From positions 1 to 53,865 of the IMG/VR virus record IMGVR_UViG_3300033513_000009: a DNA stretch of 53,865 nt; one strand, 5' to 3'. A model generated the notes under the pieces. It searched no databases, was not told where the DNA came from, and saw only the letters and a list, made by a program, of their open reading frames with translations. Each line of letters begins with the position of its first letter. The first letter of the stretch is position 1. Positions 677 through 50,200 of the stretch are shown here, piece after piece. Made by a program: the position numbers and the translations under genes. Source of the DNA: a virus (Duplodnaviria > Caudoviricetes).

Positions 677-1105
677 TTAAGATTGGCTTGGGCGGTACAT
701 TGTTTCCATGAATTTATAGGTTTTGTTCTTGCCCTTATTCTCTATAAAATCAAATCGTTTATAGAATTCCTTTAATCTTGTTTTACTTCCTCCAAAATCA
801 GAAGAAGGAGAGAGCTTGACTGTATAGCCCATTTTGTCAGCATGTTCCACTAAATCTTCCATGAATTTAGTTCCAAGTCCCTTATTGCGTTCTTTCTTGG
901 GGATAATAATAGAGCTCAATGTAAGCATTTTGGTTGAATCATTTTGACCAATAAAAAAATCAATATTGGGATATTTGGCGGTAAGTATTTCATCAACCTG
1001 AGTTATATGGTCTTTACTAGCATTATCATTTCCTATCGGGGCTCCTTTTTGTAGTTCCGAAAGAGTATTAATTATTTTGTCAAGTTTTGCTATTAATAAT
1101 TCCAA
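677..1105 (-). CDS. GNAT-family acetyltransferase with shared leader
   Basis: Acetyl-CoA motif ERNKGLGTKFM and LKEFYKRFDF; N-terminus LDKIINTLSELQK-GAPIGNDNA. Confidence 0.8.
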   Translation of the reverse strand: MELLIAKLDKIINTLSELQKGAPIGNDNASKDHITQVDEILTAKYPNIDFFIGQNDSTKMLTLSSIIIPKKERNKGLGTKFMEDLVEHADKMGYTVKLSPSSDFGGSKTRLKEFYKRFDFIENKGKNKTYKFMETMYRPSQS

Positions 1106-1578
1106 AAAGATTTTCCACCGTCTGTACTGAATTTGATATTTTTAACTCCCAAATTTTCCAATACTTTTCTTTGACGATTCTTTAATTCATTTCTATCGCT
1201 TAATTCTGATGGTATGATACTTACCGCCCTTAAGCCATCAGAGGTTGCCCTAATAGAGAGATGCTGATATTTTCCCTTAAATTCGGAACTATTAGCTGTG
1301 AAATTAACCTCGTTTTCCCCATGTGTGCTGGATATTCCGCTTTTCCCTACATATACCGCATTGTGACCCATTAAACTAACAATAGTTGCTTTGTCAATAG
1401 GCTTCCCAATAATAGTACCTAATTTTTCTAGTGATTTTGAATCAATATTCTTGGTATTAACCACCTCACTTGCAATCACCGCTTCTTTCTTGGGATTTTT
1501 GCCACTACCAGCAGGATACCTGCCTGAACCTTCGCCGCCCTTTGCTAGTTCCAAATTATCTATTATTTTGTTTATCAT
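1093..1578 (-). CDS. Leader-bearing hypothetical (putative capsid cargo)
   Basis: MINKIIDNLELAK-GGEGSGRYPAGSG; overlaps neighbouring genes. Confidence 0.75.
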   Translation of the reverse strand: MINKIIDNLELAKGGEGSGRYPAGSGKNPKKEAVIASEVVNTKNIDSKSLEKLGTIIGKPIDKATIVSLMGHNAVYVGKSGISSTHGENEVNFTANSSEFKGKYQHLSIRATSDGLRAVSIIPSELSDRNELKNRQRKVLENLGVKNIKFSTDGGKSFWNY

Positions 1579-2318
1579 CTTGCTATCCCATAAAGTTCTT
1601 CTATCTTATCACTATCAACCCCATTTGCTTCGTAAAGCTGTTCAATCTCATCCCAGTTCTCATCCACATCATCCTGTAGTTCCGAATCGAATCTACACAT
1701 CCTAATTAATGTATCTATTTCTAGTTGCCCTGAAGCTATCTCATCTAACAAATCATCACCCGTATCAAATTTAGCAAGCATCCCAATTAATTTATTATTA
1801 GTTTCCTTGCGAGTATTATCATCCAAATTTTTGTTCTGCCATTTCAAAGCCTCAATTAGGTCTTTTTTGTCATTGGCATAGTTCTTTATTTTATCAAAAT
1901 TTCTATAAGTATCCCATTGTGTTAATAGGTCTTTTTTATCATTCCAGTCTTTTATATTTTTTAGTTTTGACTGAATATTATTGATTTCCTTGTTTACAAA
2001 TTCGGTAACATGTTTAATAGGGGCATTAGTGAATGCTAATTGCCCCATTTTTTTTGACCCATAGTTAGAAGCAAATGCTTGTTCTATTAATGAAGGTAAA
2101 CCACTTTGGTGAGCCATAACCCATTGATTACCATGGAAGGAATGACCCACTAAATCACCCTTATGAAGGAAGAAGATAATATCATCCAACTTCCTCATTT
2201 TGCGCGCTGAAGACAGGGCGATAGCGATAGCTTGCCTATGCGGATATTTTCCACTCCTCATAAGCTCTCTGATATTTTCAGAGATAACTTCCTTGCTACT
2301 ACCCTGTATCAACGGCAC
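1575..2318 (-). CDS. Putative head-associated protein with internal leader
   Basis: Phage-type N-terminus MPL..GSSKEVISENIRELM..QAIAIALS, then KLDDIIFFLHK-GDLVGHSFHGNQW. Confidence 0.7.
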   Translation of the reverse strand: MPLIQGSSKEVISENIRELMRSGKYPHRQAIAIALSSARKMRKLDDIIFFLHKGDLVGHSFHGNQWVMAHQSGLPSLIEQAFASNYGSKKMGQLAFTNAPIKHVTEFVNKEINNIQSKLKNIKDWNDKKDLLTQWDTYRNFDKIKNYANDKKDLIEALKWQNKNLDDNTRKETNNKLIGMLAKFDTGDDLLDEIASGQLEIDTLIRMCRFDSELQDDVDENWDEIEQLYEANGVDSDKIEELYGIAR

Positions 2319-3022
2319 TATCTAACGCGCCTAGCCCTTAGTATTCCAGCCCCGCCGATAGTACCAGCAGAGAACGCTGCACGACCAATCAGATATACTG
2401 TGGTTGTAGCCGCTAAACTCAATCTAACGGTTGGGGTATTCTGCGTGTAATTATCTGTATGGGTTGTCAATACAACAGGAATAGACATATATGTGTCCTG
2501 AGCCCCTAGTGTAGCAGTAGTTGTGGAAATACCAGCCGCCCAATCAGTTGTTGTCGCACCAGTGAGTACGAAATCAGCTATACCATCAACATCCCAGTCC
2601 CCCGCAGTCAGAGAAATGCTTGTTAAGTTAGCGGCAGTAGCTGTAGTTAGAGCTACTGGAGATGCTATCAGTACTTGAGCCGATACATACTCACCCAGCG
2701 TACCAGCAACGGCGTTATCATTAGTTCCCGTACCAACAATGAGTCCACTGGTTGAAGCTTCGGAACTAACAGAAGCACCATCACTAATAAGTCTAACTGT
2801 AGCGCCATTTGGAATAACTACCCCAGCGGCAGAAGCTGTTTTAACAGTAACAGTAAACCCACCTGCAACAACATTGTTTGTTACAAGAAATTCGTTAGGT
2901 ACTGATGGGACTATAACATTTATGTTAGCCGTTAAAACACCAGTAAACCTTAACCTATCATAAGCAAAATCACTTTCTGATACCGTGTAGCTTGTACCAG
3001 ACAAATAAATATTTGTATCCAT
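2318..3022 (-). CDS. Tail fibre-related structural protein
   Basis: Thr/Ala/Val-rich; LRFTGVLTANINVIVP module shared with the fibres at 7381-11254. Confidence 0.65.
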   Translation of the reverse strand: MDTNIYLSGTSYTVSESDFAYDRLRFTGVLTANINVIVPSVPNEFLVTNNVVAGGFTVTVKTASAAGVVIPNGATVRLISDGASVSSEASTSGLIVGTGTNDNAVAGTLGEYVSAQVLIASPVALTTATAANLTSISLTAGDWDVDGIADFVLTGATTTDWAAGISTTTATLGAQDTYMSIPVVLTTHTDNYTQNTPTVRLSLAATTTVYLIGRAAFSAGTIGGAGILRARRVR

Positions 3023-3069
3023 TTCTTTCCTTTTTTAATTTATCGTTCCTTCTTATTATAAGGGATAAA

Positions 3070-3774
3070 TTAGTCTTGAATAGATAAAATATGTTGTTGT
3101 GAAAATGATTTCTTGCAAAAATCGTAGGGGTAGATTACATGACATCCGTCGTATTCGCCTTTCTCATTTGGAAGATAGAATTTTGTGGCATTCCCAAAAC
3201 TATCATTCATTACGAATCCAACATCATTATAACCTATGACCCCATTAACATGTACAATAGTATCGCTTGTTCCGTTCGGACGTTTTCTGAAATAAAATCC
3301 AGCAGTAATGACAGGTATGTTCTTATCTATGCTTGCTTTGATTTGTTCAAAATTCACACCCTGAGTAAATGTGTCTTTAAGACCCAATTTTTCAAGATAC
3401 CATTTTAGCACAAAGGGATTATTCCTTGGTTTAATACAATCCTGCTGTAGTTTTTCATTTGTATTAAATGGAGCTAAGTACAGTGTCCACTTTTTCAAGT
3501 CATCATCCGATAGGGATTTGATTCTATTTGCCACTATACTATCAGGCATAGTTATGAAATGAGTATTCCACGCCTCTCGTGTAGCCAATTGCTGTGACAC
3601 ATAATCATCTAGCTGACCCACTCCATCCCATCCACAAAATTTATGAATATCTAATTTGAAATATTCACAAATCCATTGAATCACCATGGCTATTGTAGTC
3701 GCTTGACAAGTACCGAAAGGAGCGTCTTCGTTGTTCCTTTGATTATGCCATACTGCATTTAATGCTTTTTCCAT
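3070..3774 (-). CDS. C39-like cysteine peptidase, candidate endolysin
   Basis: TCQATTIAM (Cys), HVNGVIGY (His), NDSFG (Asp); next to holin-like genes. Confidence 0.7.
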   Translation of the reverse strand: MEKALNAVWHNQRNNEDAPFGTCQATTIAMVIQWICEYFKLDIHKFCGWDGVGQLDDYVSQQLATREAWNTHFITMPDSIVANRIKSLSDDDLKKWTLYLAPFNTNEKLQQDCIKPRNNPFVLKWYLEKLGLKDTFTQGVNFEQIKASIDKNIPVITAGFYFRKRPNGTSDTIVHVNGVIGYNDVGFVMNDSFGNATKFYLPNEKGEYDGCHVIYPYDFCKKSFSQQHILSIQD

Positions 3775-4247
3775 TATGCCTTATTAAATACTACTTTCTT
3801 CCCTTGAATTAAATCATCTAAATGAGACCTTATCTGATAATGGGGGTCATGGTAAACATCTTCAAGTTTTTCTTTATCTTTTTTCTCATCATAGCTCGTG
3901 CGGGTAAATCCCGGAGCTTCCGTTAGTCCTGCTCCCTCGTTGCCTAAATCAGTAGAGTACCTTAAATCACTGTTTGAACTATGTTGCTCCATAATATCTG
4001 CCATAATCTCATCATGGGATTTGCCCGATTCCATTGCTTCCTTAGCTTCTTGGATTCCTTCTGGGCTGAGTTGTAATTCAACTCTATTGCCGTATTCGTG
4101 AACAGAGGCATTGTTACTATTCCAGCTTTGAACTGGTTTGTCACCCCTTGCTTCTTTCTTTGGATTTTTGCCACTACCGGCGGGATAGCGACCCGAACCT
4201 ACTCCACCCTTTGCTAGTTCCAAATCAGCTATTATCTTGTTTATCAT
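3774..4247 (-). CDS. Leader-bearing hypothetical (putative capsid cargo)
   Basis: MINKIIADLELAK-GGVGSGRYPAGSGKNPKKEA, nearly identical to the first 33 aa of 1093-1578, with an unrelated C-terminus. Confidence 0.75.
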   Translation of the reverse strand: MINKIIADLELAKGGVGSGRYPAGSGKNPKKEARGDKPVQSWNSNNASVHEYGNRVELQLSPEGIQEAKEAMESGKSHDEIMADIMEQHSSNSDLRYSTDLGNEGAGLTEAPGFTRTSYDEKKDKEKLEDVYHDPHYQIRSHLDDLIQGKKVVFNKA

Positions 4248-11281: not shown

Positions 11282-11797
11282 TTAAATGTAAACCCTATTT
11301 CCGAATTTATCATAAATATAGTGAGCCCCCCAAACATCTGAGCCGTATTGGAATTGGTTGGCACCGCCCTGCGCATCCCAATTGGCTGGTACCGAAGTGA
11401 AACCCAGATTACCAGAGGAAATATAACTCCCCTTTCTGTAAACCTTGATAGTTCCATTCGCTACCACTGTATTGATAATGCCAGTTACCTCCCATCGCCC
11501 ACTTGCTACCTTCTCTACAATAACCGTTTCGTCCTTTCTGGCGTGCCATCTCATACTACTAAAATCGCGCAACGGAACATCTACAAGTATTTCATTGTTT
11601 GAGACTCCATTTATCTTAACATCTACCCCATAGTAATACAAAGATTGTGTATTGGTTGTTTGGCGGACTCCATTGGAATCAATGTATGTAGTCTGCGAAG
11701 ATGCCGCCGGATAAACCCTTTTGACATCACCTAGAATTTGCCCTATTTTTCGATTAGGGTTGACCTGAGTAGTTACTCCAACTGTAATGCTATTCAT
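11282..11797 (-). CDS. Tail tip protein (possible OB-fold)
   Basis: Position after the hub-like gene; beta-rich. Confidence 0.45.
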   Translation of the reverse strand: MNSITVGVTTQVNPNRKIGQILGDVKRVYPAASSQTTYIDSNGVRQTTNTQSLYYYGVDVKINGVSNNEILVDVPLRDFSSMRWHARKDETVIVEKVASGRWEVTGIINTVVANGTIKVYRKGSYISSGNLGFTSVPANWDAQGGANQFQYGSDVWGAHYIYDKFGNRVYI

Positions 11798-12398
11798 GTA
11801 ATCTTTTCAAAATATTCACAATTCGGTCTAATTTCCCGACAAGGGATTCAACCCTGTCAAAATTCAATCTGTCATCCACGATAAGATTTTTACCCCCAAA
11901 ACTCTTGCTACGCTCCGCCATGGGATAATGGTCAGAAACCCTTATTTTGTCTCCCGTCATTGGATTGGAATAATATTCACTGAAAATTCTGTAGGTAGGG
12001 TTCTCTTGCCCACCTTCTTTTCCATACCCCTTACTTTCCAGATAATCAATAATTGCTTTGCGTTTATATCCTGCTTGAAATATTTTATCGGGAGACTGAG
12101 TCTTAACTTCAGATGGGGGATTTTTTGTTTCCATCATATATTCACTGCGTCTCTCCCTTAAGTAAAGACTGCGTAAATGTGCGAATTTAGCTTCATCTGT
12201 TTTTAGTTCCAAATGATTATCTAAAGCATGTGGGTATCTCCCTCTTAACACATCATAAATATCCTTATTATGCGTGAGAGACATGTAGCGAATATCATCA
12301 GGCGTTGCTACCTGTAGTTTTTTCTCACTTGCCTCCTTTGCCCCTGCCACATGTGGATTTGTGGGGTTATCATGGTACCATCCTCTTCCTTTATTCAT
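11790..12398 (-). CDS. Inserted hypothetical with leader-like motifs
   Basis: N-terminal MNK-GRGWYHD and C-terminal KLDRIVNILK; own -10 box; charged composition unlike the flanking tail genes. Confidence 0.65.
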   Translation of the reverse strand: MNKGRGWYHDNPTNPHVAGAKEASEKKLQVATPDDIRYMSLTHNKDIYDVLRGRYPHALDNHLELKTDEAKFAHLRSLYLRERRSEYMMETKNPPSEVKTQSPDKIFQAGYKRKAIIDYLESKGYGKEGGQENPTYRIFSEYYSNPMTGDKIRVSDHYPMAERSKSFGGKNLIVDDRLNFDRVESLVGKLDRIVNILKRLHE

Positions 12399-15176: not shown

Positions 15177-16213
15177 TGTGTATGTGTTATAGTTATGGTA
15201 TCAGGATTAACGGTAGTGGTACTACACAAATAAGTAAAATAAGCATAACCGTTTACATCTGTTATTAAACTCAATGTGGTATTTGTTTGTAATGCAATAT
15301 TTAAATTAGCTCCCAACTTAGAGAGTTCGCTTAAGGGGGAAATTGTTAGCAATCCATTAGGAGTTCCCCCCCCCGAAGCGGTTAGAACTACAGTCAGAGG
15401 CTTAAATGGCACCCCTACCCCACTAGTATCAGCTAATTGAACCGTTGCATTTGCCCCCCCACCCTGTAGTCGGGGTCTGTCCCATGCTAGATTTATGCTT
15501 GTTGCAACAGGGGTCGCGGGAACGAAATCATATACATCCCCATTTAAGGTGCTGCCGAATTGCCTATACACATTTCTATCTGTATCCCATGCAAACCATC
15601 TAACTGTGGTATTCTGATTCGCTGTAGATAGTGATTGTTGCGAAAGCTTTCCATAATATATGGGTCGATTAGTTGCTGAACCATCAAAAATAGCATAACT
15701 ATCAAAATCCTTAACATTCAAAGTCCAACCCGACTGATTAAGAGTTGCGTTCATGTCGTGGGATGGAAGAAAACTATAGGTCGATAATATAGCACCCGTC
15801 AAACCGTTTAACTTCACCAAAACGCTAGAATTATTATGCACATAAATCTCATTAGTCGCTTCATTTACGAAAAAATTACCACCCGTATTATAACTGGAAG
15901 AAGTTATGGAGTATATGGCACTGCCAGTAGGATAGAGAGAATAATCCCTTCTAAAAATCGACCAAACACCTCCAGATTGGGTTGCTAAGTACATTTGTTC
16001 AGCTCCGGTGGCTAGTTTGCCATATCCCAGATTACTGAGACCCGTTGGCATACCAGTTACTGAGGCAATTGTTCCACCGAGCGACATTAAATAGGCAGTA
16101 GTACCAGCAAACCATGTAAAGCTCTTCCTGTTTGGAATATACAAGAGGCTAACAAATAAAGGATTTGTTATGACCCCTGTATTGATTGGTGGATTTTGAA
16201 CTAATTGTAACAT
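15173..16213 (-). CDS. Tail protein with C-terminal Ig-like region
   Basis: Immediately follows the TMP; ATVQLAD..G.GV and ITDVNGYAYFTY Ig-like motifs. Confidence 0.55.
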   Translation of the reverse strand: MLQLVQNPPINTGVITNPLFVSLLYIPNRKSFTWFAGTTAYLMSLGGTIASVTGMPTGLSNLGYGKLATGAEQMYLATQSGGVWSIFRRDYSLYPTGSAIYSITSSSYNTGGNFFVNEATNEIYVHNNSSVLVKLNGLTGAILSTYSFLPSHDMNATLNQSGWTLNVKDFDSYAIFDGSATNRPIYYGKLSQQSLSTANQNTTVRWFAWDTDRNVYRQFGSTLNGDVYDFVPATPVATSINLAWDRPRLQGGGANATVQLADTSGVGVPFKPLTVVLTASGGGTPNGLLTISPLSELSKLGANLNIALQTNTTLSLITDVNGYAYFTYLCSTTTVNPDTITITHTQ

Positions 16214-20058: not shown

Positions 20059-20492
20059 TATTTTTCTGACCTAAGTTTTGTTGCCCAGTGCTGCATAACA
20101 TGACCATGAGCCTCCTTGAATTTGGGAGTTGTTATTCTGCCCTCATCGGCATTCTGAATAGTCTCCCTGATTGTATCAAGTTTTTTAGCGGCTTCCTCTG
20201 GGCTATTAGCTTCTTTTATTGCTTTTGAAGCATGTTCGTAGGCATTCATCATCCCATTATGTACTTCCTGCGCTTCTTTATAGCTTTGTTGCAAGGAATG
20301 AGGCACGTTCTCCTCTCCATGAGCGGCTATCATGCTTGAATTAAGTGCAGACATTGATGCTGAATGTCTTTGAGAATGTCTCTTTGTTTCCTTGGTTAAT
20401 TCTTCTTTTCTTATACCCCAGTGCATACCCTTCTTGCCATATTTAGCTATGACACTATTGGCGTGTTCCAGCCTCTTCATTAAATTGCTCAT
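20058..20492 (-). CDS. Leader-bearing hypothetical (putative capsid cargo)
   Basis: KRLEHANSVIAK-YGKKGMHWGIRK. Confidence 0.7.
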   Translation of the reverse strand: MSNLMKRLEHANSVIAKYGKKGMHWGIRKEELTKETKRHSQRHSASMSALNSSMIAAHGEENVPHSLQQSYKEAQEVHNGMMNAYEHASKAIKEANSPEEAAKKLDTIRETIQNADEGRITTPKFKEAHGHVMQHWATKLRSEK

Positions 20493-26125: not shown

Positions 26126-27631
26126 TTAATTTAAGCCTTTTGCAATTACATCCCTGAGCCTGAAACATTTCTCCCCAAGTTCCTGTTTGAGCATTGGATT
26201 TTGCTCCTTGTCAAACATCATCTTGGTGATTTCATATTCCTGCTCTACAGGAGATTTCTGCAATTCAACCATGCCACCATCCTTATCGAATGCCCTTGGA
26301 GCTGATTTAGCAACAGGGGAAGCAACGTTACTTTCGATTGCCTGTAGTCTTTTATTCATTTTCTCATCCAAATCCTTAACGAATTTAGCAAGGTCTATCG
26401 TAGCTTCAGCAACCTTGTTCACACTTTCCTGAACCTCTTCAGCCTTGGATACCGCCATTGCTGTCTTAGGTTTGATTACTGTACTTCCAGCAGAAGCCGC
26501 GTCCTGAGCAGCATTACTAACGCTTCTTTCTTTCCAAGCATTTATGCGCCCTTCACCAAAATACTTCTCCAGCTCTTCATCTGTCATATCCTCTTCGTCT
26601 TCAATTGGTTCAATATCCCTTGTTTCTTCGCCAGCTTTAAGATTTCTCTTAGCCCTGCCAGCGCCGAAAGATTTTGACATTTTGCCAGATTTGAGTTTGT
26701 ATTCGTTGCCCTCAACACCCATCTCGCCTTTTCTCATAGACTTAATAACAACAAAATCCTCGTCGTCCATAACGCCCATATCATCCTCATCCATATCATG
26801 ACCACCGCAATTAGCGCCCATGCCACATGCCTCATCGTGTATGATTTGGATTTTGTCAGCATAAGCTTTGGCAAGAGCATCACTCTTATGTACCAGTTCA
26901 CCATCTAGTCCCAGTGATTCTGATAGCGCTAGAAGGTAATCTACCTTAGTAACATCTTCATCCTCTGGTAAGCTAATATGACCAGCGGCAGTAGCAGCAC
27001 CAATTAACCCAAAAGCAGAGTTAATCAGGGGCTGTATATCACCTTTGGTTATATTTCCAGAGTCCATTCCTTCAGCAATAGCATCAAGGCTCTCAGCTAC
27101 TACTGCAAAGCTTTCAGCTTTTAGAATATCATCCATATTTTCCTCACCTGTATATAATTTAAAAATTGGTAATAGTGTAGCTTCAGGATTAGCACCCCTA
27201 TCAACTAACGATATTTCAGTTAGAAGTAGTTTTGTAATCGTGTTACCTACTTTCTCTAGTCTTTTACCGCCGATACTGTAGCCCGTAAACATGCCCATTT
27301 TGACCTTGTTTATAGCAGCGGGGTCAACGATAAAACTACCCACAAACAATCCCTTATCATCCATCAGCCATTTAATAGCTTTTCCAATTAAAGAAAACGG
27401 ATTGTGCATTTCTTTAATTGAAGGAGTTTTGATGTAGTCAGGAAGGGCATCCTCAATAGCTTTTTTTGCTACTTTTTCACCCTGCCTATCTAGTGTCTCG
27501 GTACTTGCATATCCTTCGACATACACCCCCTTAACACCATCAACCTCCATTTCCTTCCATACCTTCCCACCGTCAAATTTTCGTAGTTCTACGTCAAACT
27601 TAAACATAGCGGTATCCGCAAATTTCATCAT
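26126..27631 (-). CDS. Prohead protease (HK97-type) fused to scaffold
   Basis: VEGYAST..DRQGE, EMH, GYSIGG, EISLVDRGANPEA; acidic/helical C-terminal half. Confidence 0.9.
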   Translation of the reverse strand: MMKFADTAMFKFDVELRKFDGGKVWKEMEVDGVKGVYVEGYASTETLDRQGEKVAKKAIEDALPDYIKTPSIKEMHNPFSLIGKAIKWLMDDKGLFVGSFIVDPAAINKVKMGMFTGYSIGGKRLEKVGNTITKLLLTEISLVDRGANPEATLLPIFKLYTGEENMDDILKAESFAVVAESLDAIAEGMDSGNITKGDIQPLINSAFGLIGAATAAGHISLPEDEDVTKVDYLLALSESLGLDGELVHKSDALAKAYADKIQIIHDEACGMGANCGGHDMDEDDMGVMDDEDFVVIKSMRKGEMGVEGNEYKLKSGKMSKSFGAGRAKRNLKAGEETRDIEPIEDEEDMTDEELEKYFGEGRINAWKERSVSNAAQDAASAGSTVIKPKTAMAVSKAEEVQESVNKVAEATIDLAKFVKDLDEKMNKRLQAIESNVASPVAKSAPRAFDKDGGMVELQKSPVEQEYEITKMMFDKEQNPMLKQELGEKCFRLRDVIAKGLN

Positions 27632-39362: not shown

Positions 39363-40454
39363 TTACTCCATAATGTCAAGAGCTATTTTCAGACCCTGTT
39401 CCTTGGTGGAAAACTCTTCATCAAACTGCCTGTTCAGCAATTCTTTCAAGAGTCTACCCATGTGTGGAGAAGGTGTTACTCCTATCGAAATAAGGTCATC
39501 ACCATTAACTACAGGTGCAAGACTATTTTTTACTTCCTCGTATATTGAGCGGAGCCCTTCAGTCTCATAACCTTTCGCTTTATAGAACTTGATAAGCTTC
39601 GGTACGTCCACCTTATTTGCAAGTTGTCTTACAGAAGGTCTGGTAAGGTTGAACTCATACGGAATAAGCAAGCTTTTAACGCTCTCCAGCAATTTTGTTT
39701 CATTCGAAAGCCCATTAGTTCCTCCAAGAAGAGCGAACATTACATCAAGCTCTCGACTCTCTACATTGTCGATGAATCTGTAGTCATATGAAGGAAAAAT
39801 CACCTCAAGGATTCCGTTTTCCTCCATCCATTCAAATGCTATTGATGGTTTTTTACCCTTCAATAGTATTTTTTCAAATTCACCCAATATTCTCTCCCTT
39901 GAAAGAGATGGGAGTTCTGGTATGAGTTCCCTGCAAAGCTTTGTAGTTTCGGGGTCGATACCGAATTCAAAACGGGAAGCGAATTGAGCCACCCTAAGTA
40001 CCCTCAGTGGGTCTTCAGCAAAAGTATCTCTGTTGACATACCTGATAAGTTTTTTCTGAATATCTTTCACACCATTAAATGGGTCGATTATCTCTCCGCT
40101 TAGTGGGCACATCAATATAGCATTAATAGTTAAATCCCTGCGTGAGCAAGCTTCCTCAAATGACATGAAGGGGTCAGCGCTAATAGCAAATTGCGTATGT
40201 CCTACCCCTATTTTGCGTTCCCTGCGGGGGATTGAAATATCCATATCCCCCAATTTATAAATGCCGAAGGACTGACCTACCAAATTAGGTTCACCAAATT
40301 CTCGCAAAACCTCCAATAGCTGTGGTTCCGTCAAGCCATAGACCTCTATGTCTATATCCTTGTTTGGGAGACCCATTAGGGTATCACGCACGATTCCCCC
40401 AACGAGGAATGCCCTTCCTCCTTTCTCCCTAATTTGTTGCGCTATTTGTTTCAT
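39363..40454 (-). CDS. cca: CCA tRNA nucleotidyltransferase (class II)
   Basis: VGGIVRD, DIDIE, RRDLTINA, EDPLRVLR, SRERI..E, VNGDDL. Confidence 0.88.
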   Translation of the reverse strand: MKQIAQQIREKGGRAFLVGGIVRDTLMGLPNKDIDIEVYGLTEPQLLEVLREFGEPNLVGQSFGIYKLGDMDISIPRRERKIGVGHTQFAISADPFMSFEEACSRRDLTINAILMCPLSGEIIDPFNGVKDIQKKLIRYVNRDTFAEDPLRVLRVAQFASRFEFGIDPETTKLCRELIPELPSLSRERILGEFEKILLKGKKPSIAFEWMEENGILEVIFPSYDYRFIDNVESRELDVMFALLGGTNGLSNETKLLESVKSLLIPYEFNLTRPSVRQLANKVDVPKLIKFYKAKGYETEGLRSIYEEVKNSLAPVVNGDDLISIGVTPSPHMGRLLKELLNRQFDEEFSTKEQGLKIALDIME

Positions 40455-40524
40455 AACTTTATTATATCATAATACATTTAATTTGTCAATTATTCAGTGT
40501 CACAACATATGCTATAATTTTCAA
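40455..40524. promoter_or_regulatory. Divergent leaderless promoters for cca and acb1
   Basis: Minus TTGACA(40489-84)-17-TATAAT(40466-61), 6 nt to ATG; plus TGCTATAAT(40510-18), 6 nt to ATG 40525. Confidence 0.75.
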
Positions 40525-41025
40525 ATGAAGAAAATAGAAGAACTCGTAAATTTCATTAAATCGTTCACAAAGGGCACTTATGCTGGAGTGAGATTTGATG
40601 AGCAAACTCAAAATATATTGTTTCAATATGCAATAGATAATAAAATCCCTAATCCTGTTAGCAAGGAGGATTACCATACAACGCTTTTGTATAGTCGCAA
40701 ATACCTTCCTAATTATAAGGGGGCAGGAAAAATAGATATGTATGGAACTCCAGCGAAATTAGAGATTTGGAAAAACAGCAATGCCTTGATTAAAACTTCT
40801 GTTTTGGTACTTCGCTTTGAAAGTTCCGAACTTTCCAAGAGGCATAATTTTTTGATGGGGGAACATCATGCTACCTATGATTTCCCAACCTATATTCCTC
40901 ACATCACATTAAGTTATAATGTTGGTGATTTAGATATTTCGACATTACCAAAAGTTCCCTTAACAGAAATACATATGGTTGAAGAGTATAGCTCCGATTT
41001 AAATGAGGAAAAAATTAAAAAATAA
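40525..41025 (+). CDS. acb1: Anti-CBASS 2H phosphodiesterase, Acb1 (T4 57B-like)
   Basis: Two HxT motifs YHTTLLYSR and YIPHITLSYNVG; PNPV, LEIWK, LVL..S..L..RH, ATYDF match T4 57B as recalled. Confidence 0.85.
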   Translation: MKKIEELVNFIKSFTKGTYAGVRFDEQTQNILFQYAIDNKIPNPVSKEDYHTTLLYSRKYLPNYKGAGKIDMYGTPAKLEIWKNSNALIKTSVLVLRFESSELSKRHNFLMGEHHATYDFPTYIPHITLSYNVGDLDISTLPKVPLTEIHMVEEYSSDLNEEKIKK

Positions 41026-41186
41026 TGGAAGAGAAAGCAGTGGCACAAATTCAAAAAGAACTAGACAAATTGGGGCTCAGATATGAAGATAAAGATAAGC
41101 CAGACTTCCCTATCGGAAAGGTGTGGGAGGCTGGAATAGACCTTTCTAGCGCTCAGGTTGAAGGACAAACCGTCTTTTTGGACTAA
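41025..41186 (+). CDS. 53-aa hypothetical (not in ORF track)
   Basis: MEEKAVAQIQKELDKLG...; TAATG coupling at both ends. Confidence 0.6.
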   Translation: MEEKAVAQIQKELDKLGLRYEDKDKPDFPIGKVWEAGIDLSSAQVEGQTVFLD

Positions 41187-42019
41187 TGGATAGGGTTAAA
41201 GAATTACAATCAATTGTAAAATCGTTTTTCGGACATGAGGGACGGGAGGGATTAGTAGGTGGAAGCTCTCCTCGAAACTTATTCAAAAATGAAGAAGAAG
41301 CGATTACGCATTTCAAAAATATGGGTATTGGTCTCGAATTTAAGTATGGCGACCGTCAGACTAAACTAAATAGAATTGAAATAGAGCAATTGAATGATGT
41401 TGCAAAAAGTGTCGCGCATATTACTTCAAAATATCCCCTAAAAAACAAGCATATGTTCGAGAATATAGTAATTGATAACACAATGCAGGAGAATCATAGG
41501 GGAATGTGGTCTGGTTCCTTCTATCCAAGTAGTCCCATGGATTCACATGGAAATATTCTTTTGAATATGAAAGCATTAATGGATTATAAGACAGGGGCTA
41601 ATATCGCAACCTCCCTCAAGGAAACCCTTATCCATGAATATGGTCATGCCCTACATCACGAATATGAGGCATTTAATTGGGATAATTTTGCTAATCGCCT
41701 ACCACTAGAGGGGCTCAAACCAGTATCATCTAAAACAGGAGCATTAATGTCGGATTTATATGATTTAAGGGAGACTATTAGTAAGGGAATACGGGGTGAT
41801 GATGAGTTTCAAAATCTTACTTCTGCCGACCTTCATTATTTCAAAGACCTGAAGCAATATGCACCTTCGGTTTATGCGCTAAATAATATCCATGAATACG
41901 TTGCAGAAAGCTTTTTGGCTAGGGAGAAAGGGCAGGAACTATCACCATTTAGTCAGAAAGTCCTAAAGGAAATTATAGACAGTAAACCTGATTGGAAAAT
42001 AAAGAGAGCGCTTTTTTAG
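41186..42019 (+). CDS. Leader-bearing zincin metallopeptidase
   Basis: VKELQSIVK-SFFGHEGREGLVGGSSPR; HEYGH; PSVYA..EYVAESF. Confidence 0.8.
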   Translation: MDRVKELQSIVKSFFGHEGREGLVGGSSPRNLFKNEEEAITHFKNMGIGLEFKYGDRQTKLNRIEIEQLNDVAKSVAHITSKYPLKNKHMFENIVIDNTMQENHRGMWSGSFYPSSPMDSHGNILLNMKALMDYKTGANIATSLKETLIHEYGHALHHEYEAFNWDNFANRLPLEGLKPVSSKTGALMSDLYDLRETISKGIRGDDEFQNLTSADLHYFKDLKQYAPSVYALNNIHEYVAESFLAREKGQELSPFSQKVLKEIIDSKPDWKIKRALF

Positions 42020-43368: not shown

Positions 43369-43581
43369 ATGAAATACATAAAAACGCAAAATAATGAGAT
43401 AGTACTATTTCCCGAAACTTTGACCCACTCGCAGTTTCGACACCTTCTGCCTATTTCCGCTGGCTTTGTTAGTGGATTATTTTCGGGGGAGCCAACTTGT
43501 TTTGGCTCCAGTATTTCACTTGGACTTTCTTCCGCTGAGGAGGATAGTGAGATACTGAGAAAACAAATTAGGGGTTATTAA
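43369..43581 (+). CDS. Hypothetical (leaderless transcript)
   Basis: TTGACT(43334)-17-TATAAT(43357), ATG 6 nt later. Confidence 0.7.
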   Translation: MKYIKTQNNEIVLFPETLTHSQFRHLLPISAGFVSGLFSGEPTCFGSSISLGLSSAEEDSEILRKQIRGY

Positions 43582-43864
43582 TGATTTTTTGTAACTTTTC
43601 TATTTTGGTACTATTAATATCATAATATGCAAGAGTTTGTCTTGCCCATGCCCATTGACCGCGTAAAAGTGAGCGCAATGCAGGTGATACCGTTGCATAT
43701 AGTATAAGGTTATCTATAGGAACTTCGTTACCCCCAATAAGCATGGGAAATGTTTCCACTATTCTATCTAAATATGCTCTTAGTTTTGATTCATCTATAG
43801 GCTCATTTTTCCTATTGAAATAGAGTATTCCTAATTCTCGTCCGATTTTATTACTATAGTCCAC
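43568..43864 (-). CDS. Small protein coupled downstream of a zincin gene
   Basis: Overlaps the stop of 43854-45377. Confidence 0.55.
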   Translation of the reverse strand: MDYSNKIGRELGILYFNRKNEPIDESKLRAYLDRIVETFPMLIGGNEVPIDNLILYATVSPALRSLLRGQWAWARQTLAYYDINSTKIEKLQKIINNP

Positions 43865-45377
43865 TGTATTCTCCTAGAAATTCTTTTTGATAGTCTGTTA
43901 ATTTTTTATTAGTAAGGTGTGCCTGAACAAAACTTTCAGCAAAAAATTCATACTTATTAGTCATTCCGAACTTGCTTGGAATATCGTTCTGAACTTTTTC
44001 GTAACCAAAACCAAGCAAGGAGCCACCCGCCTTATTACTAATGGATTGCGCAAAGGCATCAAATCCCCTGTCATCTTTTCTCAAGTCCCTATAACTATAA
44101 GCATGACCCATTTCATGAGCGATAACATGTTGCATTGGTGCTGAATCTGTTTTTATCAAGTCAGACATTCCTAATCCACCCATCTGGTCATAAACAAAAG
44201 CTCTTTTATTAAAGATAATCTTTGCTGTCCCATCGGCATAGGGTTGGTAAATTGCCCCCGCATCACTTTTACCACCCAAGTCCTTTGTTGTAATATGAGT
44301 TAGTCCTTTTGGCATTCCGAATTTATCATGGAGGGCAAACAATGTTTCATTTATTTGATGTACCTGCTCCAATGTGGGAATATCCCCATAGTTCACCTTT
44401 ATGCCTAGCTTTTTTGTCGCCATCTTGCTTGCTTCGGCAACAGTAGTAGCTTCCCTTGGTAAACTCCCACCTCTTTCCCCCTGACGTCCCTTATGACCCT
44501 TGAAGGATTTTGCTAGTTCCAAATCAGATATTATTTTGTTTATTCCATAATCATGGTGGTCTAAATGATATTTGGTTTTATCAACAACAGGAATGCCCTT
44601 CTTATCGGCTTCAGCTTTTAGCTCTTTATAGGTCTCGTCATCAACTATTTTTCGGTCAACTTGAATATTCTTGATGTACTTATCGGCATTTTCCAGACCA
44701 TTATTGCCACCAATTTTAAGCTCCTCTTCGCCAGCAAATGTTCCAAGAAATTTATCTCCCACCTTGACTTTATGACCGTCTTCTTTTATTTTGCCCAAAT
44801 CTAAGTCAATACGCACACCTTTATCAGCGAAGGTATAAGGCTTGTTGCCCTCTCCGTACCACTGAACAGTTGCTATATCTGGGTGGTCAAAATCGGGATT
44901 AGTTGTTGTCGATAATCCAGATACCTCACCCTCCCCATAAAGTTGATTTTCCTGTAAAATATTAATTGCAGAAGAAGGGTCAGTAAAGTGATATGTTTTG
45001 GGGGCATTTTCGTCACCTCCCATAGCAAAGGGGTTGGGTTGTTTATTAAGAATCTCTAAATTACGGGATAATTCTTTAAATGATTTATCATCCCTAGCGT
45101 GAAGTTCGTTAAATCTGGTTGTCAGTTCTTCTTCAGAGATTTTGTCTCGTTCCGCTTTTAATTTATCCCAACCTTCCGATGATTTGATGTCATGGGCTTG
45201 TTTTAAAGCGCCCCTAAGTCGAAGAATATCTTGTGGTTTTAGGGTGCCACCATCTTTAACATAATCCATGTATTTTTGATGATTTTCCATGGTGATTCCT
45301 TTTGTCCACTGGTTTCCGTGAAATTCGTGACCTTCCTTGTCACCCTTCCTTAAGTTGTAAATTATTTTATCGAGCAT
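43854..45377 (-). CDS. Two-module leader polyprotein: ART-like domain plus zincin
   Basis: LDKIIYNLRK-GDKEGHEFHGNQW; YHFT/LSTT/GEEE; internal INKIISDLELAK-SFKGHKGR; HEMGH, EFFAESF. Confidence 0.75.
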   Translation of the reverse strand: MLDKIIYNLRKGDKEGHEFHGNQWTKGITMENHQKYMDYVKDGGTLKPQDILRLRGALKQAHDIKSSEGWDKLKAERDKISEEELTTRFNELHARDDKSFKELSRNLEILNKQPNPFAMGGDENAPKTYHFTDPSSAINILQENQLYGEGEVSGLSTTTNPDFDHPDIATVQWYGEGNKPYTFADKGVRIDLDLGKIKEDGHKVKVGDKFLGTFAGEEELKIGGNNGLENADKYIKNIQVDRKIVDDETYKELKAEADKKGIPVVDKTKYHLDHHDYGINKIISDLELAKSFKGHKGRQGERGGSLPREATTVAEASKMATKKLGIKVNYGDIPTLEQVHQINETLFALHDKFGMPKGLTHITTKDLGGKSDAGAIYQPYADGTAKIIFNKRAFVYDQMGGLGMSDLIKTDSAPMQHVIAHEMGHAYSYRDLRKDDRGFDAFAQSISNKAGGSLLGFGYEKVQNDIPSKFGMTNKYEFFAESFVQAHLTNKKLTDYQKEFLGEYSGL

Positions 45378-45579
45378 ATTCTTGTAGATACGAGGAAAAT
45401 TTAACACCCTTTCTTATGAGGTTTTTGATTATACGCCCATATTTAACTGGGTCAATAGATACTCGAATAGTCAGCAACTCTTCTATGCCATAACCATTTC
45501 TATAGTTCTGATAAAGACCCTCAATCATATCTTGTTCCGACATTTCATCATCTATTAATATGTATTCCATTATTTCCAT
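45367..45579 (-). CDS. Small protein coupled downstream of a zincin gene
   Basis: 70 aa with acidic N-terminus; overlaps both neighbours. Confidence 0.55.
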   Translation of the reverse strand: MEIMEYILIDDEMSEQDMIEGLYQNYRNGYGIEELLTIRVSIDPVKYGRIIKNLIRKGVKFSSYLQEYAR

Positions 45580-46349
45580 TTGGTTATCCTTTCCAACATT
45601 GTTTTTTGAAGTTCGCTGATTTTCATTCCGGTATGAGCTTGCACAAATGATTCAGCGACAAATTCATCGGAATCTTGCATTGCATATATGCTTGGAACAT
45701 CTGCTCTTTTTTTATATACTTGTGGTGTGAGTTCACCCTCTTCATTTTCAAGCCTATCCCTAAAAGCCCAAAAGTCATGATGATTAGGGTCATTATAATA
45801 GATACGTGTATTCCCTTCTTTATCCTTCCTCTGCCCAAAATGCTCTAGTCGATAATTGAAATCATAAGCATGTCCCAATTCATGAAGTGTAGAGACCTTG
45901 ACTTGACTAGCCCCAAGGGGCATTACCGTCATGTCCCCGAATATTTTATCCATTTGCTCAAAGGTTGAATTTCTTTCTATGCACTTTGAATTAATGACCA
46001 CTTTCCCCAAAAATGGAACACCTTTTGTTACTGCCTCAAGGGGATTACTCCTAAAAGCTCCTTGTACCCCAAAATCCATTTCCTCTACAACAAATTCTTT
46101 CAGACCATCAGGCTTCCCATATTTTGAAAAAATGTCTGACATAGTTCCTATTGCATGATTCAATCCTTCTATATTTGTTTTATTAGGGATGGTTGCTTTC
46201 ATCCCTAATTTCTTTTCAATAAATACGCGGGCTTCCTTTACATTTTTGGCTCCAGTAAAACCACTGATGTATTGATTGCCATGGAATGGATGACCCTTGA
46301 AATCACCCTTCCTTAAGTTGTAAATTATTTTATCTAGTTTTATTAGCAT
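45570..46349 (-). CDS. Leader-bearing zincin metallopeptidase
   Basis: KLDKIIYNLRK-GDFKGHPFHGNQY; HELGH; PSIYA..EFVAESF. Confidence 0.8.
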   Translation of the reverse strand: MLIKLDKIIYNLRKGDFKGHPFHGNQYISGFTGAKNVKEARVFIEKKLGMKATIPNKTNIEGLNHAIGTMSDIFSKYGKPDGLKEFVVEEMDFGVQGAFRSNPLEAVTKGVPFLGKVVINSKCIERNSTFEQMDKIFGDMTVMPLGASQVKVSTLHELGHAYDFNYRLEHFGQRKDKEGNTRIYYNDPNHHDFWAFRDRLENEEGELTPQVYKKRADVPSIYAMQDSDEFVAESFVQAHTGMKISELQKTMLERITKWK

Positions 46350-46418: not shown

Positions 46419-46862
46419 ATGATAAACAAAATTATAGACATGTTGAAGCAGTCTACTCCTTTCTATTCCGATGAAACAAGAGGATATGATGATAATATTC
46501 GAAACATTGTCCGTAGTCCTGAATATAAAAAGGCACAAAAATTACTCATGAGTTACAAAAGTGATGTTATTGATGTTATGAATGGGCTTAGAGCCAATAT
46601 CGAAAACAAAGATAAAATCATGGAATATTACAAGGAGCTAAAAGCAATTGATGACTCCGATGTACGAGAAGCAATTGACAGGGTAGCTACCGTCTATGAT
46701 GGACATGGGATAGGTAGTAAAGCCCGTTCGAAACTACAAGATGATTTACAGCGTATTAAGAACCATGCTTTTGCTATTGCTGACGAAATTAAAGGTAAGA
46801 AGATTCAGCGTAACTACACAAGCGGAATTATAGTAGTGCCTAGTAGTGAAAACCATTCTTAA
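46419..46862 (+). CDS. Leader-bearing hypothetical
   Basis: MINKIIDMLK start; TGGTATCAT 6 nt upstream. Confidence 0.65.
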   Translation: MINKIIDMLKQSTPFYSDETRGYDDNIRNIVRSPEYKKAQKLLMSYKSDVIDVMNGLRANIENKDKIMEYYKELKAIDDSDVREAIDRVATVYDGHGIGSKARSKLQDDLQRIKNHAFAIADEIKGKKIQRNYTSGIIVVPSSENHS

Positions 46863-47480: not shown

Positions 47481-47921
47481 TTATGCCTCATAATCACCAT
47501 CATATCTATGACCTTGTTGATTAGCAGTATCCTTTAATTGACTATGGAGAGGAGTACCGTGATAAGCATCAATAAATTTATCAACATTCCTGCTTAATGT
47601 ATGCTTGAATTGATTTCCATCCCTACCTTCCTTGTATTTAATAACCATATCCTTAATAGCCTCATGTGGAGTCGCGTCCCCCATTTTAACTTCATTAGCT
47701 GTTTTTTCGGCATAGGTATGACCAGCCTCCGTTTCCAATGAAGCATTGTATGTAGTTGGTCTTAGGTCTTCATTCTTAAGTCTATTAGATACCGTTGCTC
47801 TCTTCTCCCCAAAATGCGCACTAAGTGAATGAGCTATTTGCCTATATTGATTCCCGTGAAACTCATGACCTTCTTTGTCACCTTTTGCTAGTTCTAATTT
47901 ATCTATTATTTTATTTATCAT
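47481..47921 (-). CDS. Leader-bearing hypothetical (putative capsid cargo)
   Basis: MINKIIDKLELAK-GDKEGHEFHGNQY; own TTGACA(47963-58)-17-TATAAT(47940-35). Confidence 0.75.
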   Translation of the reverse strand: MINKIIDKLELAKGDKEGHEFHGNQYRQIAHSLSAHFGEKRATVSNRLKNEDLRPTTYNASLETEAGHTYAEKTANEVKMGDATPHEAIKDMVIKYKEGRDGNQFKHTLSRNVDKFIDAYHGTPLHSQLKDTANQQGHRYDGDYEA

Positions 47922-47966
47922 TTTACTATCCTTTATTATACCATATTTATCTTGATTTGTCAAAAA

Positions 47967-48679: not shown

Positions 48680-48703
48680 TCGTCCATCACCTCCCCCGCT
48701 TTC

Positions 48704-49222
48704 CTATAGGTGTGCATCATGGTTCGATAATACTCCCTTTGTAGCTAGATTGCCAATATGTTCTATGGAAGCTTCTTTATCTATGAAATAATTTGATTTA
48801 TGTGTTCCCCATTTCATTCCACCCCTTCTCATTCCCCAGTGCATTCCCTCGACACCATATTTGCGTATATTTGATGCTATTTTGTCTAATTTATCCATTT
48901 GTGTGTAATCCATATTCTCAATATTATCTATGTGTTCATTTAGGGTATCAATATAAGACCTAGCAAAATCATCATCGCCTACGTCTTTTGTTGCTTCGGC
49001 TAGTTTATCTTGTAGTTCTTGGTGATTAGTGGAATCATGGGCGTGCATTAGTACTGTCTCATGGGCTTCCGCCTCCCCCAAAGCCTTTTGTTTGTCGGCA
49101 CCCTCTGAATTATCCGCTAGTTCACGGGCTTTGTATTGTAGTTCCGAAACTTTTCCCTGCCCGTCGGTATTTTTGTAATTGGTGATACCCCATCGCATCC
49201 CCTTCACCCCATACTTTCTCAT
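48704..49222 (-). CDS. Leader-repeat hypothetical
   Basis: MRK-YGVKGMRWG and internal KLDKIASNIRK-YGVEGMHWG. Confidence 0.7.
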   Translation of the reverse strand: MRKYGVKGMRWGITNYKNTDGQGKVSELQYKARELADNSEGADKQKALGEAEAHETVLMHAHDSTNHQELQDKLAEATKDVGDDDFARSYIDTLNEHIDNIENMDYTQMDKLDKIASNIRKYGVEGMHWGMRRGGMKWGTHKSNYFIDKEASIEHIGNLATKGVLSNHDAHL

Positions 49223-49488
49223 CTTGACCTCAAATTTTGTATTATACGTTCCAGCTTTTTATCAAATGATTGATTCATATCTTCACTATGCTTTAGGATT
49301 GTTTTCTTAAAATCCTCGTCACCATCGAGTACATCATAGAGACTGTTTTGAAGTTCCTCGTGGCTGTTGGCTTCTTTGGCAAACATGAGGACTGTTTTGT
49401 GTGCCTCTGCTTCACTTGGATTATGGGATTTTCGAATAAGCTCAACTAATTGAACCCTTCCTTCCTTACAGAGATAGTTTTTTATCAT
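49219..49488 (-). CDS. Paralog of the 48704-49222 core with C-terminal leader helix
   Basis: EAEAHKTVLM..SHEELQ vs EAEAHETVLM..NHQELQ; ends KLERIIQNLRSR. Confidence 0.65.
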   Translation of the reverse strand: MIKNYLCKEGRVQLVELIRKSHNPSEAEAHKTVLMFAKEANSHEELQNSLYDVLDGDEDFKKTILKHSEDMNQSFDKKLERIIQNLRSR

Positions 49489-49627
49489 AATTTTCGTTCC
49501 TTTAGTTTTTCAACCGATTCTTTTAGTTCGGAGACATAGTTGTTTAGTTTTTTAATTTCGTCAGTAAGAAAAACGAAATCACCCTTATTAGGGGTGTTTT
49601 TCTTAATTATCTTCCTTACCGCTGCCA

Positions 49628-50200
49628 TTACTGTATCTCTGAAAGCCTATCCAATCCTTCTTGGTCAAATAGTCTAGTTATACCTTTGTGCTCTTTTAGA
49701 ACGGCTTTATATTCCCTCATGGCTTCTTTGTTGGGACGACCATAATCATCATATTTGTCGTGGTTATAGTTCTCGGCATAATCCTCGAAAGAACCGGGGT
49801 CAGAAACAGACATAGATATTGAGCTCAAAATGTCATAAGTCGAAGGTTTCTCTCCCTTATTGGTAGCATTTATACTATTTCCCCAGTTAAAAGAATAGGA
49901 ATCTCCATCTTTGTTTTTTAGGGTAACTTTATACACATCTCTAGTGACACCCTTCTTCTTATCACTCGGAAAGTGTGACTTATTGCCCATGTGCAAGACA
50001 TGGAGAGAAGCTCCTGTATCATTCAGGAATCGTTGTGCATGTGTGTGATATTCATTTGAAGGGTCATGTTTTAATTCAACTTTTCCTCCACCATTTCCAG
50101 TGTATTGATTGCCCCTGAATGGATGTCCCTTTCTCTCACCGGAGCCAGCTCCGCCTTTTAGTATTTCGATAACTCTATTTAGTTTTTGTAATTTGTTCAT
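49628..50200 (-). CDS. Leader-bearing hypothetical (putative capsid cargo)
   Basis: KLNRVIEILK-GGAGSGERKGHPFRGNQY; GAGG RBS before ATG 50200. Confidence 0.75.
   Translation of the reverse strand: MNKLQKLNRVIEILKGGAGSGERKGHPFRGNQYTGNGGGKVELKHDPSNEYHTHAQRFLNDTGASLHVLHMGNKSHFPSDKKKGVTRDVYKVTLKNKDGDSYSFNWGNSINATNKGEKPSTYDILSSISMSVSDPGSFEDYAENYNHDKYDDYGRPNKEAMREYKAVLKEHKGITRLFDQEGLDRLSEIQ

Follow-up and report, generated by a model that had tools for sequence, protein, structure and literature searches.

Gly/His-rich peptides as probable junction tags of cargo modules in an uncultured tailed phage and in many other phages

Why would a phage place the same few Gly/His-rich peptides in front of, or between, otherwise unrelated protein bodies, and what would read them? 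This question is raised by the IMG/VR record IMGVR_UViG_3300033513_000009 (Duplodnaviria; Caudoviricetes). Its 53,865 bases form one linear viral contig, which makes up the entire record for its genome and was analysed here at full length (the window). At 16 sites on 14 of its proteins, a short leader is followed by a Gly/His-rich peptide, hereafter called a word, and the peptides are located either at N-termini, i.e. at the high coordinates of open reading frames (ORFs) on the minus strand, or at internal domain joints. An earlier note, made from the sequence alone, had described the words as a small interchangeable vocabulary and had proposed that they form a second signal, exposed as a new N-terminus by processing. 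Our analyses show a tag that stands at module boundaries in the company of head and cargo domains, and the words are very probably junction tags of cargo modules of the polyvalent type. The way in which a phage chooses the proteins packaged in its capsid is known for few model phages, and the same holds for the cutting and hand-over of giant multi-enzyme proteins.

Four types of word recur on the contig. The A word, GD..GH.F[HR]GNQ[YW], is present in six copies (ORFs 1575, 28503, 43854, 45570 and 47481, and as a hybrid in ORF 49628), and the B word, GH.G..G..GGS, in three (ORFs 27628 and 41186, and internally in ORF 43854). The C word, YG..GM.WG, has three copies and a partial GMKWG (ORF 20058, and twice in ORF 48704), and the D word, GG.GSG, has three (ORFs 1093, 3774 and 49628, the last fused to the A word). 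In addition, there are two singletons, GAPIGNDNA in ORF 677 and GRGWY in ORF 11790. The coordinates used in the earlier note, which we keep as ORF names, are the low (stop) ends of minus-strand ORFs, except for ORF 41186-42019, which lies on the plus strand. All motifs listed there were found when the contig ORFs were read. A helix profile recognises an amphipathic helix leader at ten sites (for example MINKIIDNLELAK and LDKIIYNLRK), usually with Lys as the last residue, and this Lys is the sole feature common to nearly all sites of this phage. The shuffling of helix and peptide types is also borne out, with LELAK standing before A, B and D words and GDKEGHEFHGNQ following both LELAK and NLRK. 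The sites are as follows; the outside-only profile is one of the A word built exclusively from other phages' copies.

47844..47921, minus: A module of ORF 47481-47963, MINKIIDKLELAK + GDKEGHEFHGNQY; helix profile 25.6 bits, outside-only profile 44.4 bits
46269..46349, minus: A module of ORF 45570-46349, LDKIIYNLRK + GDFKGHPFHGNQY, before a lethal-factor-like zincin domain; 39.6 bits
45306..45377, minus: N-terminal A module of ORF 43854-45407, MLDKIIYNLRK + GDKEGHEFHGNQW; 31.5 bits
44463..44543, minus: internal B module of ORF 43854-45407, INKIISDLELAK + SFKGHKGRQGERGGS, at the joint before the zincin half; helix profile 22.3 bits
29154..29231, minus: A module of ORF 28503-29231, (M/L)IDRIILNLELAK + GDFEGHPFHGNQY; 48.3 bits
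2121..2192, minus: internal A module of ORF 1575-2318, at about residues 43-66, KLDDIIFFLHK + GDLVGHSFHGNQW; 26.1 bits
50102..50200, minus: hybrid module of ORF 49628-50227, MNKLQKLNRVIEILK + hybrid GGAGSGERKGHPFRGNQY; 33.4 bits
1486..1578, minus: D module of ORF 1093-1578, MINKIIDNLELAK + GGEGSGRYPAGSGKNPKK; helix profile 28.0 bits
4155..4247, minus: D module of ORF 3774-4247, MINKIIADLELAK + GGVGSGRYPAGSGKNPKK; helix profile 26.8 bits
27985..28092, minus: B-word N-terminus of ORF 27628-28092, GHAGVPGHWGGS, a small basic protein encoded immediately upstream of the protease-scaffold gene
41186..41266, plus: B module of ORF 41186-42019, MDRVKELQSIVK + SFFGHEGREGLVGGS, before a zincin paralogue
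20415..20492, minus: C-word N-terminus of ORF 20058-20492, ...ANSVIAK + YGKKGMHWG; DUF7211-like, 16.9 bits (cut-off 27)
49187..49222, minus: C-word start of ORF 48704-49222, MRK + YGVKGMRWG; DUF7211, 30.2 bits (cut-off 27)
48806..48898, minus: internal C module of ORF 48704-49222, MDKLDKIASNIRK + YGVEGMHWG, then GMKWG
1019..1105, minus: leader of ORF 677-1105 (GNAT), LDKIINTLSELQK + GAPIGNDNA; helix profile 9.3 bits
12375..12398, minus: start of ORF 11790-12398, MNK + GRGWY, an unsupported singleton
46419..46448, plus: leader MINKIIDMLK of ORF 46419-46862, with no Gly/His word behind it; helix profile 7.8 bits

The outside-only A profile finds exactly six sites on the contig, at 26.1-48.3 bits; the next match scores 8.6 bits and the maximum over 40 shuffles is 7.9 bits, and chance is therefore excluded. 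The tag is also portable, as similarity from carrier to carrier ends after 26-33 residues. ORFs 1093 and 3774 are identical at 30 of their first 33 residues and ORFs 47481 and 28503 at 20 of 26, and in both pairs the remainder is unalignable; at the nucleotide level, ORFs 1093 and 3774 share 83% identity over the module only. The copies in the window differ at synonymous sites, except that the neighbouring genes 45570 and 43854 have leaders of nearly identical DNA. These synonymous differences point to selection on the peptide and not on the DNA. The carriers of the contig have 142-517 residues and one recognisable body each, ORF 43854 having two units. The GNAT part of ORF 677 aligns with positions 2689-2795 of phrog_10691, a profile of 3925 positions, which links the contig directly to the polyvalent repertoire; the gene of ORF 28503, whose body looks GNAT-like (a lead only), directly follows the portal gene. 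Residues 1-43 of ORF 1575-2318, ahead of its module, match the 52-position phrog_2423 (E 8e-16), for which a function is not assigned.

How far does the word extend beyond this phage? A scan of viral contigs with the back-translation of G-H-x-F-x-G-N-Q-Y found the A word in at least 185 stretches, often several times per contig on one strand. The distinct copies read in frame among the matches listed number 169, and the five residues before the word, which were not part of the query, are conserved in them as well. Of these 169, 126 have K at position -5, 157 have G at -4 and 148 have D at -3; a hydrophobic and then a variable residue follow at -2 and -1, and position -7 is V, I or L in 126. 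A basic residue before the word is thus general. Behind the word, 100 of the 169 have Gly three residues past the final Tyr, and a Gly/Ser-rich linker comes next. Some of the listed copies lie 20-60 residues from the ORF start, and the leaders before these differ from those of this phage and recur among themselves; others lie deep within long ORFs. Two of the listed ORFs, L006 and L007 of one IMG/VR contig, stop one and four residues past GNQY, and one of them, of only about 50 residues, consists of little beyond leader plus word.

In a full HMMER pass over 1.84 billion representative proteins, 2,029 clusters reached E <= 1e-3, and 68 reached E <= 1e-30; carriers have up to 3,461 residues and up to nine copies of the word each. 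In the 142 best multi-copy proteins, 531 copies are spaced at a median of 210 residues, and the first copy begins no more than 40 residues from the N-terminus in 69 of the 142. In 141 copies taken from unrelated contigs, seven positions never vary. Meanwhile, the exact word is rare in bacterial and archaeal genomes (one per species), being found in 18 stretches at 9 loci, all but one on contigs of metagenome-assembled genomes (MAGs), from at least six phyla.

The commonest word is thus widespread, and we found neither a family name nor a paper for it; one word, C, already has a DUF number. Pfam, NCBIfam and PHROGs hold no named family for the A word, and NCBIfam has none for any carrier. The word profile gave no match at E <= 10 against all PDB sequences, and the literature searched, which did not extend to the supplementary files of PMC5512222 and PMC5576092, contains no description or name for the words. 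Searches with the carriers found no cultured phage that has the word: a multi-word protein of 1,113 residues had matches, confined to its domains, in three records of cultured phages (two records being of one phage), and the MuF-word-ART protein P0055 matched 607 phage records, among which gp11 of Streptomyces phage Maih and gp42 of Gordonia phage Jollymon, both MuF-protease fusions, are wordless. A cluster look-up of ten carriers sourced from NCBI returned no names.

The domains around the word are those of phage heads and of enzymes. Among the 50 longest listed word-bearing ORFs, a Pfam family was found in 19 and none in 31. The head and assembly domains of this set are Portal_Mu (3), Phage_portal_3, Mu-like_Pro, Peptidase_S78_2 and DUF2213, with Phage_Mu_F just below the cut-off, and its enzyme modules are ART-PolyVal, ADPrib_exo_Tox, PBECR3, NUDIX (2), Zeta_toxin, 2',5' RNA ligase, a HipA-like kinase and a SprT-like domain; the uncharacterised domains DUF6582 and DUF5872 also occur. 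Of the 31 top multi-copy proteins, 18 have families of similar kinds, together with pentapeptide repeats, InPase, topoisomerase IB and MuF. DarA_N+InPase and GNAT are also among the domains of word carriers. The earlier note had suggested motif searches across phage proteins and MuF/portal fusions, and the word does occur behind domains of portals, MuF and prohead proteases: P0048 and P0055 have it between MuF and ART, P0053 has it between the HK97-type protease and its scaffold part, and P0027 has it behind a Mu-type portal. This company (ART-PolyVal, PBECR, NUDIX, MuF, portal and others) is the repertoire of phage-type polyvalent proteins as given in the portions of PMC5512222 consulted.

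Three paralogous domains of the contig allow the interchangeability of the words to be followed, namely

45570..46250, minus: predicted lethal-factor-like (M34-type) zincin domain of ORF 45570, with HELGH and a conserved Glu in ...EFVAESF
41270-42019, plus, and 43854-44460, minus: its paralogues, at 28-32% identity

The three read HELGH, HEYGH and HEMGH and share HExGHA and ...E[FY][FV]AESF, and the three-way alignment shows no variation at H156, E157, H160 and E233 of ORF 45570. With VIA-align, the model of ORF 45570 matches residues 561-774 of anthrax lethal factor (Z 12.3, root-mean-square deviation 3.3 A, 169 aligned residues, 17% identity), the PPEP/Zmp1 peptidases coming next at Z about 8; Foldseek gave a weak match with the same model (E 0.04). 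At the thresholds used, the zincin ORFs matched no Pfam, PHROGs or NCBIfam family and had no useful PDB sequence match, and a word-indexed search found no homologue of ORF 45570. The HExxH motif, the conserved Glu and the lethal-factor-like fold of the model mark the three paralogues as M34-like zincins. Before this same domain and in the same alignment columns, the word is of type A in one paralogue and of type B in the other two, so the interchange proposed in the earlier note holds here, with a GNQY or a GGS word at the same position within one family. The A and B words share K..F.GH columns in this alignment, and they may be diverged forms of one element, since K, F, G and H of both are aligned in the same columns.

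Other word types behave in a related manner, although the spread of GGS, GM.WG and GG.GSG outside the contig is known only from proteins fetched for the GNQ[YW] word. In P0015, P0081, P0089 and P0194, a GG.GSGN.GH.GRPG..GGS unit lies amid GNQ[YW] units of the same protein, and the hybrid GG.GSG...GH.F.GNQY of the ORF 49628 type recurs in many other phage contigs. The C word corresponds to Pfam PF23847 (DUF7211), which ORF 48704 matches above and ORF 20058 below the cut-off; in a six-frame search with DUF7211, all four sites remained under the cut-off. For GAPIGNDNA and GRGWY, searches returned only noise and no counterpart in the sequences at hand, and nothing supports keeping these two in the vocabulary.

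Structure predictions place the word outside the folded domains. In the AlphaFold model of ORF 45570, based on a 3-row alignment, the predicted local distance difference test (pLDDT) averages 72.7, and module residues 1-30 lie under 50. Folded alone by AlphaFold2 (AF2) with 141 aligned copies, the module gives a helix (residues 4-17), a coil (the word) and a further helix, at a pLDDT of about 69. Being coil or of low pLDDT in both models, the word behaves like a short linear motif rather than like a portion of a domain. A complex prediction of the protease-scaffold protein with the module gave no answer (score 0.00) and is evidence neither way.

What, then, might the tag do? Many phages fuse unrelated enzymes into a giant polyvalent protein on a portal, MuF protein or prohead protease, with a unit of helix, Lys, Gly/His-rich word and Gly-rich linker ahead of each module; in the explanation that we favour, the separate small genes of the present phage encode such modules, each of which has retained the unit at its start. 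As the helix differs between phage lineages, it most likely serves, in the way of the T4 capsid targeting sequence, as an address fitting a lineage-specific procapsid partner, whereas the word, constant across very different phages, most likely meets something universal and would act as a recognition and hand-over signal for proteolytic release, read in trans. We infer that the modules are packaged and that a head-associated protease (the S78 protease or any of the three tag-bearing zincins) cuts at or beside Lys-Gly and leaves each enzyme with a flexible tail beginning with the word. The S78 protease-scaffold protein is a candidate processing enzyme of head proteins; for the zincins, zincin-like metallopeptidases (MPTases) are predicted to cut polyvalent proteins into units in the portions of Iyer et al. 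2017 (PMC5512222) available to us. Cleavage after Lys is plausible, since nearly all sites of this phage have the Lys in common, since the modules of portal, MuF and protease fusions that are already tethered all bear the word and since the word is found between protease and scaffold parts. ORF 49219-49488, upstream of ORF 48704 and overlapping it by 4 bases, ends in a helix, ...KKLERIIQNLRSR, and the boundary between it and the MRK + C word start of ORF 48704 falls exactly at the junction of leader and word; this arrangement looks like what a cut at that point would leave. We regard the chances of the mechanism as a whole, address and cleavage together and with either the S78 protease or a zincin doing the cutting, as about even.

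Leader-like helices are also found at C-termini, as ...KLQKIINNP (43568-43864, minus), ...KLDRIVNILKRLHE (11790-12398, minus) and ...VLDGVIASLDR of the portal (29221-30663, minus).

Several results weigh against this mechanism. The residue after Lys varies, so one protease must accept Gly, Tyr or Ser, and the residue at -5 is other than K in 43 of the 169 listed copies. The rule in the earlier note that the words come after the K is exact for most sites and not for all, as the word of ORF 27628 has no Lys before it (...SSGNY precedes GH). Known prohead-protease sites are far shorter than a word with seven invariant positions; that of T4 gp21, for comparison, is I/LxE according to the sections of PMC12991175 consulted. 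The word ends a few ORFs (L006 and L007) and opens one right behind the start codon (L119), and from its internal, ORF-initial or ORF-terminal positions in other phages it follows that a free N-terminus cannot be a general requirement. Accordingly, the second signal of the earlier note stands in so far as the word, conserved across thousands of unrelated phage proteins behind lineage-specific leaders, is a signal of its own separable from the helix; its exposure as a new N-terminus does not stand as a general rule, and the data favour none of the suggested roles in DNA binding, metal binding or ejection over the others. No Pfam MPTase domain was found in the 31 top multi-copy proteins, and no MuF domain was detected by Pfam or PHROGs in the contig ORFs scanned. 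ORFs 41186 and 46419 are on the plus strand, outside the late minus-strand block, and ORF 41186 lies beside RNA-repair genes. Our searches found no carrier with cleavage, packaging, ejection or virion-proteomic data, and part of the picture is missing from the contig, for which CheckV estimates a completeness of 46%. Finally, no word was found in the 119 closest relatives of this phage's protease or in 80 loci (1.09 Mb) around such proteases. The word is thus not tied to this protease lineage, and a link between the two was rejected.

A different possibility is that nothing is cut and that the word, with or without the helix, stays as a docking motif which tethers the cargo to a universal head component such as DNA, the portal or the capsid interior. 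Packaged DNA would be the most obvious universal partner, and modules would be loaded, held and released in order. This accommodates the N-terminal, internal and C-terminal occurrence of the word, as is usual for binding motifs, its unstructured nature with a flanking Gly-rich linker, the dispensability of Lys in a quarter of the listed copies, and the seven invariant positions with conserved flanks, which exceed the needs of a scissile site; among the listed ORFs, the word accompanies no fewer than three portal and four protease families, which also argues for a common partner. However, no such partner has been identified, three or four dissimilar words would need one tolerant partner or several, and no solved structure contains the motif among the PDB sequences searched. 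Moreover, portal-, MuF- and protease-fused proteins are tethered already and still bear a word before each module, which fits release better. We therefore consider docking without cleavage rather unlikely, though a serious contender. The word might instead act during or after delivery, as a threading leader for the portal and tail or by binding a conserved host factor or the membrane in the cell, without any role in head assembly; the ejection role suggested in the earlier note is a reading of this type. The word is conserved in phages on MAG contigs from six or more bacterial phyla, which would fit a very conserved target, and its place on a flexible leash before each enzyme would suit such a use. 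Against this, P0053, L001 and L065 have the word between their protease and scaffold parts, in head-assembly proteins that are not thought to be delivered, and we know of no host-factor motif that resembles it; a signal for delivery alone is quite improbable.

Could the words be passive, that is, linkers tolerated after duplication or joints left by recombination, with no function in recognition? The nearly identical leader DNA of ORFs 45570 and 43854 and the module-only identity of ORFs 1093 and 3774 do show that cassettes move or convert within the genome. Nevertheless, seven positions are invariant in 141 copies while synonymous sites vary freely among the contig copies, and the fixation of His, Phe, Asn, Gln and Tyr/Trp across 2,029 clusters is not expected of a linker; a passive joint is very unlikely, and a recombination joint in particular was rejected because of the variation at synonymous sites. 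Hardly credible is the proposal that LELAKGG leaders are double-glycine leaders, cut after Gly-Gly by a C39-like peptidase as in bacteriocin export. It can draw on a Peptidase_C39_2 ORF (3070-3774) directly downstream of ORF 3774 and on three leaders that end in KGG; but Gly-Gly is present at only three of the 16 sites, the others reading KGD, KSF or KYG, and no transporter gene was seen on the contig. In addition, the C39-like protein also matches an endolysin PHROG, lies near membrane-protein genes and is the sole lysin candidate found. The favoured explanation of a tag read for proteolytic release could also be carried further, to words as a general cargo code in which any enzyme behind a word is loaded, cut free and delivered by the head machinery. 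Word types would then sort classes of cargo, for example by releasing protease or by order of exit, and three word classes together with three tag-bearing zincin paralogues would fit one protease per class. So broad a code seems improbable to us.

The tag may be akin to capsid-targeting and processing signals of other phages. Like the capsid targeting sequence (CTS) of T4, as described in the material on it that we consulted, a short amphipathic N-terminal leader is common here to unrelated small head-region proteins: the helix profile finds ten leaders before words, AF2 predicts a helix, and the bodies are unrelated. As with the CTS and gp21, the leader would be expected to load the procapsid and to end at a protease site. 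In contrast to the present system, in the same T4 material the site has three residues and no conserved peptide lies behind the cut, where this phage has a word of 14-16 residues; furthermore, this word recurs inside giant proteins and across differing portal and protease families. A similar comparison can be made with the ejection-protein propeptides of giant phages (SPN3US), for which the consulted parts of PMC10052503 and PMC7411985 describe one prohead protease acting on many head-internal proteins with a short shared motif. The protease there is of another lineage, the short site is another one, and no long conserved word is described in these parts.

The polyvalent proteins of PMC5512222, as far as that source was consulted, resemble the word carriers in their ART-PolyVal, PBECR, NUDIX, InPase, DarA-N, MuF, portal and assemblin-like protease domains, and processing by zincins is predicted for them, while this phage has three lethal-factor-like zincins. 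On this contig, however, the modules are separate genes, so that two or more effectors in one protein, as used to define polyvalent proteins, are seen in carriers elsewhere and not here. A term search of the accessible text of PMC5512222 did not find a joint motif; the supplementary alignments, which could hold one, lay outside its scope. The MuF polymorphic toxins of temperate phages (Jamet et al. 2017, PMC5576092, seen in part) likewise have MuF followed by a variable effector, and the word stands exactly at this joint in P0048 and P0055; the contig differs in having no detectable MuF domain. In the accessible text of PMC5576092, a term search found no mention of a linker, conserved motif, junction, cleavage or glycine. 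PF23847 (DUF7211), a family of 25 positions with no function given, covers one of the four words, and no paper mentioning DUF7211 was found in the literature searched.

With a tag that stands before modules in over 2,000 protein clusters, the packaging and hand-over of cargo can be approached directly. The tag flags candidate injected enzymes in metagenomes, such as ADP-ribosyltransferases, kinases, NUDIX hydrolases, acetyltransferases and zincins. As a small portable sequence, it can be deleted or transferred to a reporter, which can test loading, processing and delivery, and the contig is a good test bed because its modules are separate small genes that can be handled singly. If the cargo code were true, a few short profiles would identify the injected proteome of uncultured phages from sequence alone.

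Most genes of the contig are on the minus strand. Besides the following, they include head-tail adaptors and tail fibres among the structural genes.

30941-34501, minus: large terminase of 1,186 residues with intein-like insertions
29221-30663, minus: portal
26126..27631, minus: S78 (HK97-type) prohead protease fused to a scaffold-like tail ending in ...RLRDVIAKGLN
24611-26113: capsid protein
21036-22301: major tail protein with an Ig-like domain
16213-19131: tape measure
3070-3774: C39-like probable lysin (Peptidase_C39_2, E 1.4e-7)

Deposited and cultured phages gave no match to the contig DNA, to ORF 47481 or to its 35-residue module, and the capsid protein as sole query found no relative among viral contigs. 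The structural look-alikes of ORF 43854 include minor-capsid/MuF clusters at template modelling (TM) scores of 0.30-0.41, too weak to count. The protein encoded at 22304-23146 (minus) combines a DUF6582 domain with an acidic middle, and it finishes with a leader-like helix and Lys-Gly (...AKSIIAMIRKGLAKK...); many relatives have DUF6582 and the S78 protease in a single fusion protein. In the tail module, a ferritin-like protein (Pfam Ferritin, E 2.3e-31; 20489-20986, minus) is encoded between the major tail protein gene and the C-word ORF 20058. A tRNA nucleotidyltransferase (39363-40454, minus) and an RNA ligase (40348-41025, plus), neighbours on opposite strands beside the zincin gene 41186-42019, may form an RNA-repair set. 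Two overlapping plus-strand ORFs, 50248-50775 and 50706-51338, match the consecutive positions 2-131 and 140-286 of phrog_2376 (ATPase); possible explanations are a split gene, a frameshift and a sequencing error. In the terminase, Pfam Intein_splicing covers residues 179-530, and Hint_2 begins at residue 828, directly after the RNaseH-like nuclease domain.

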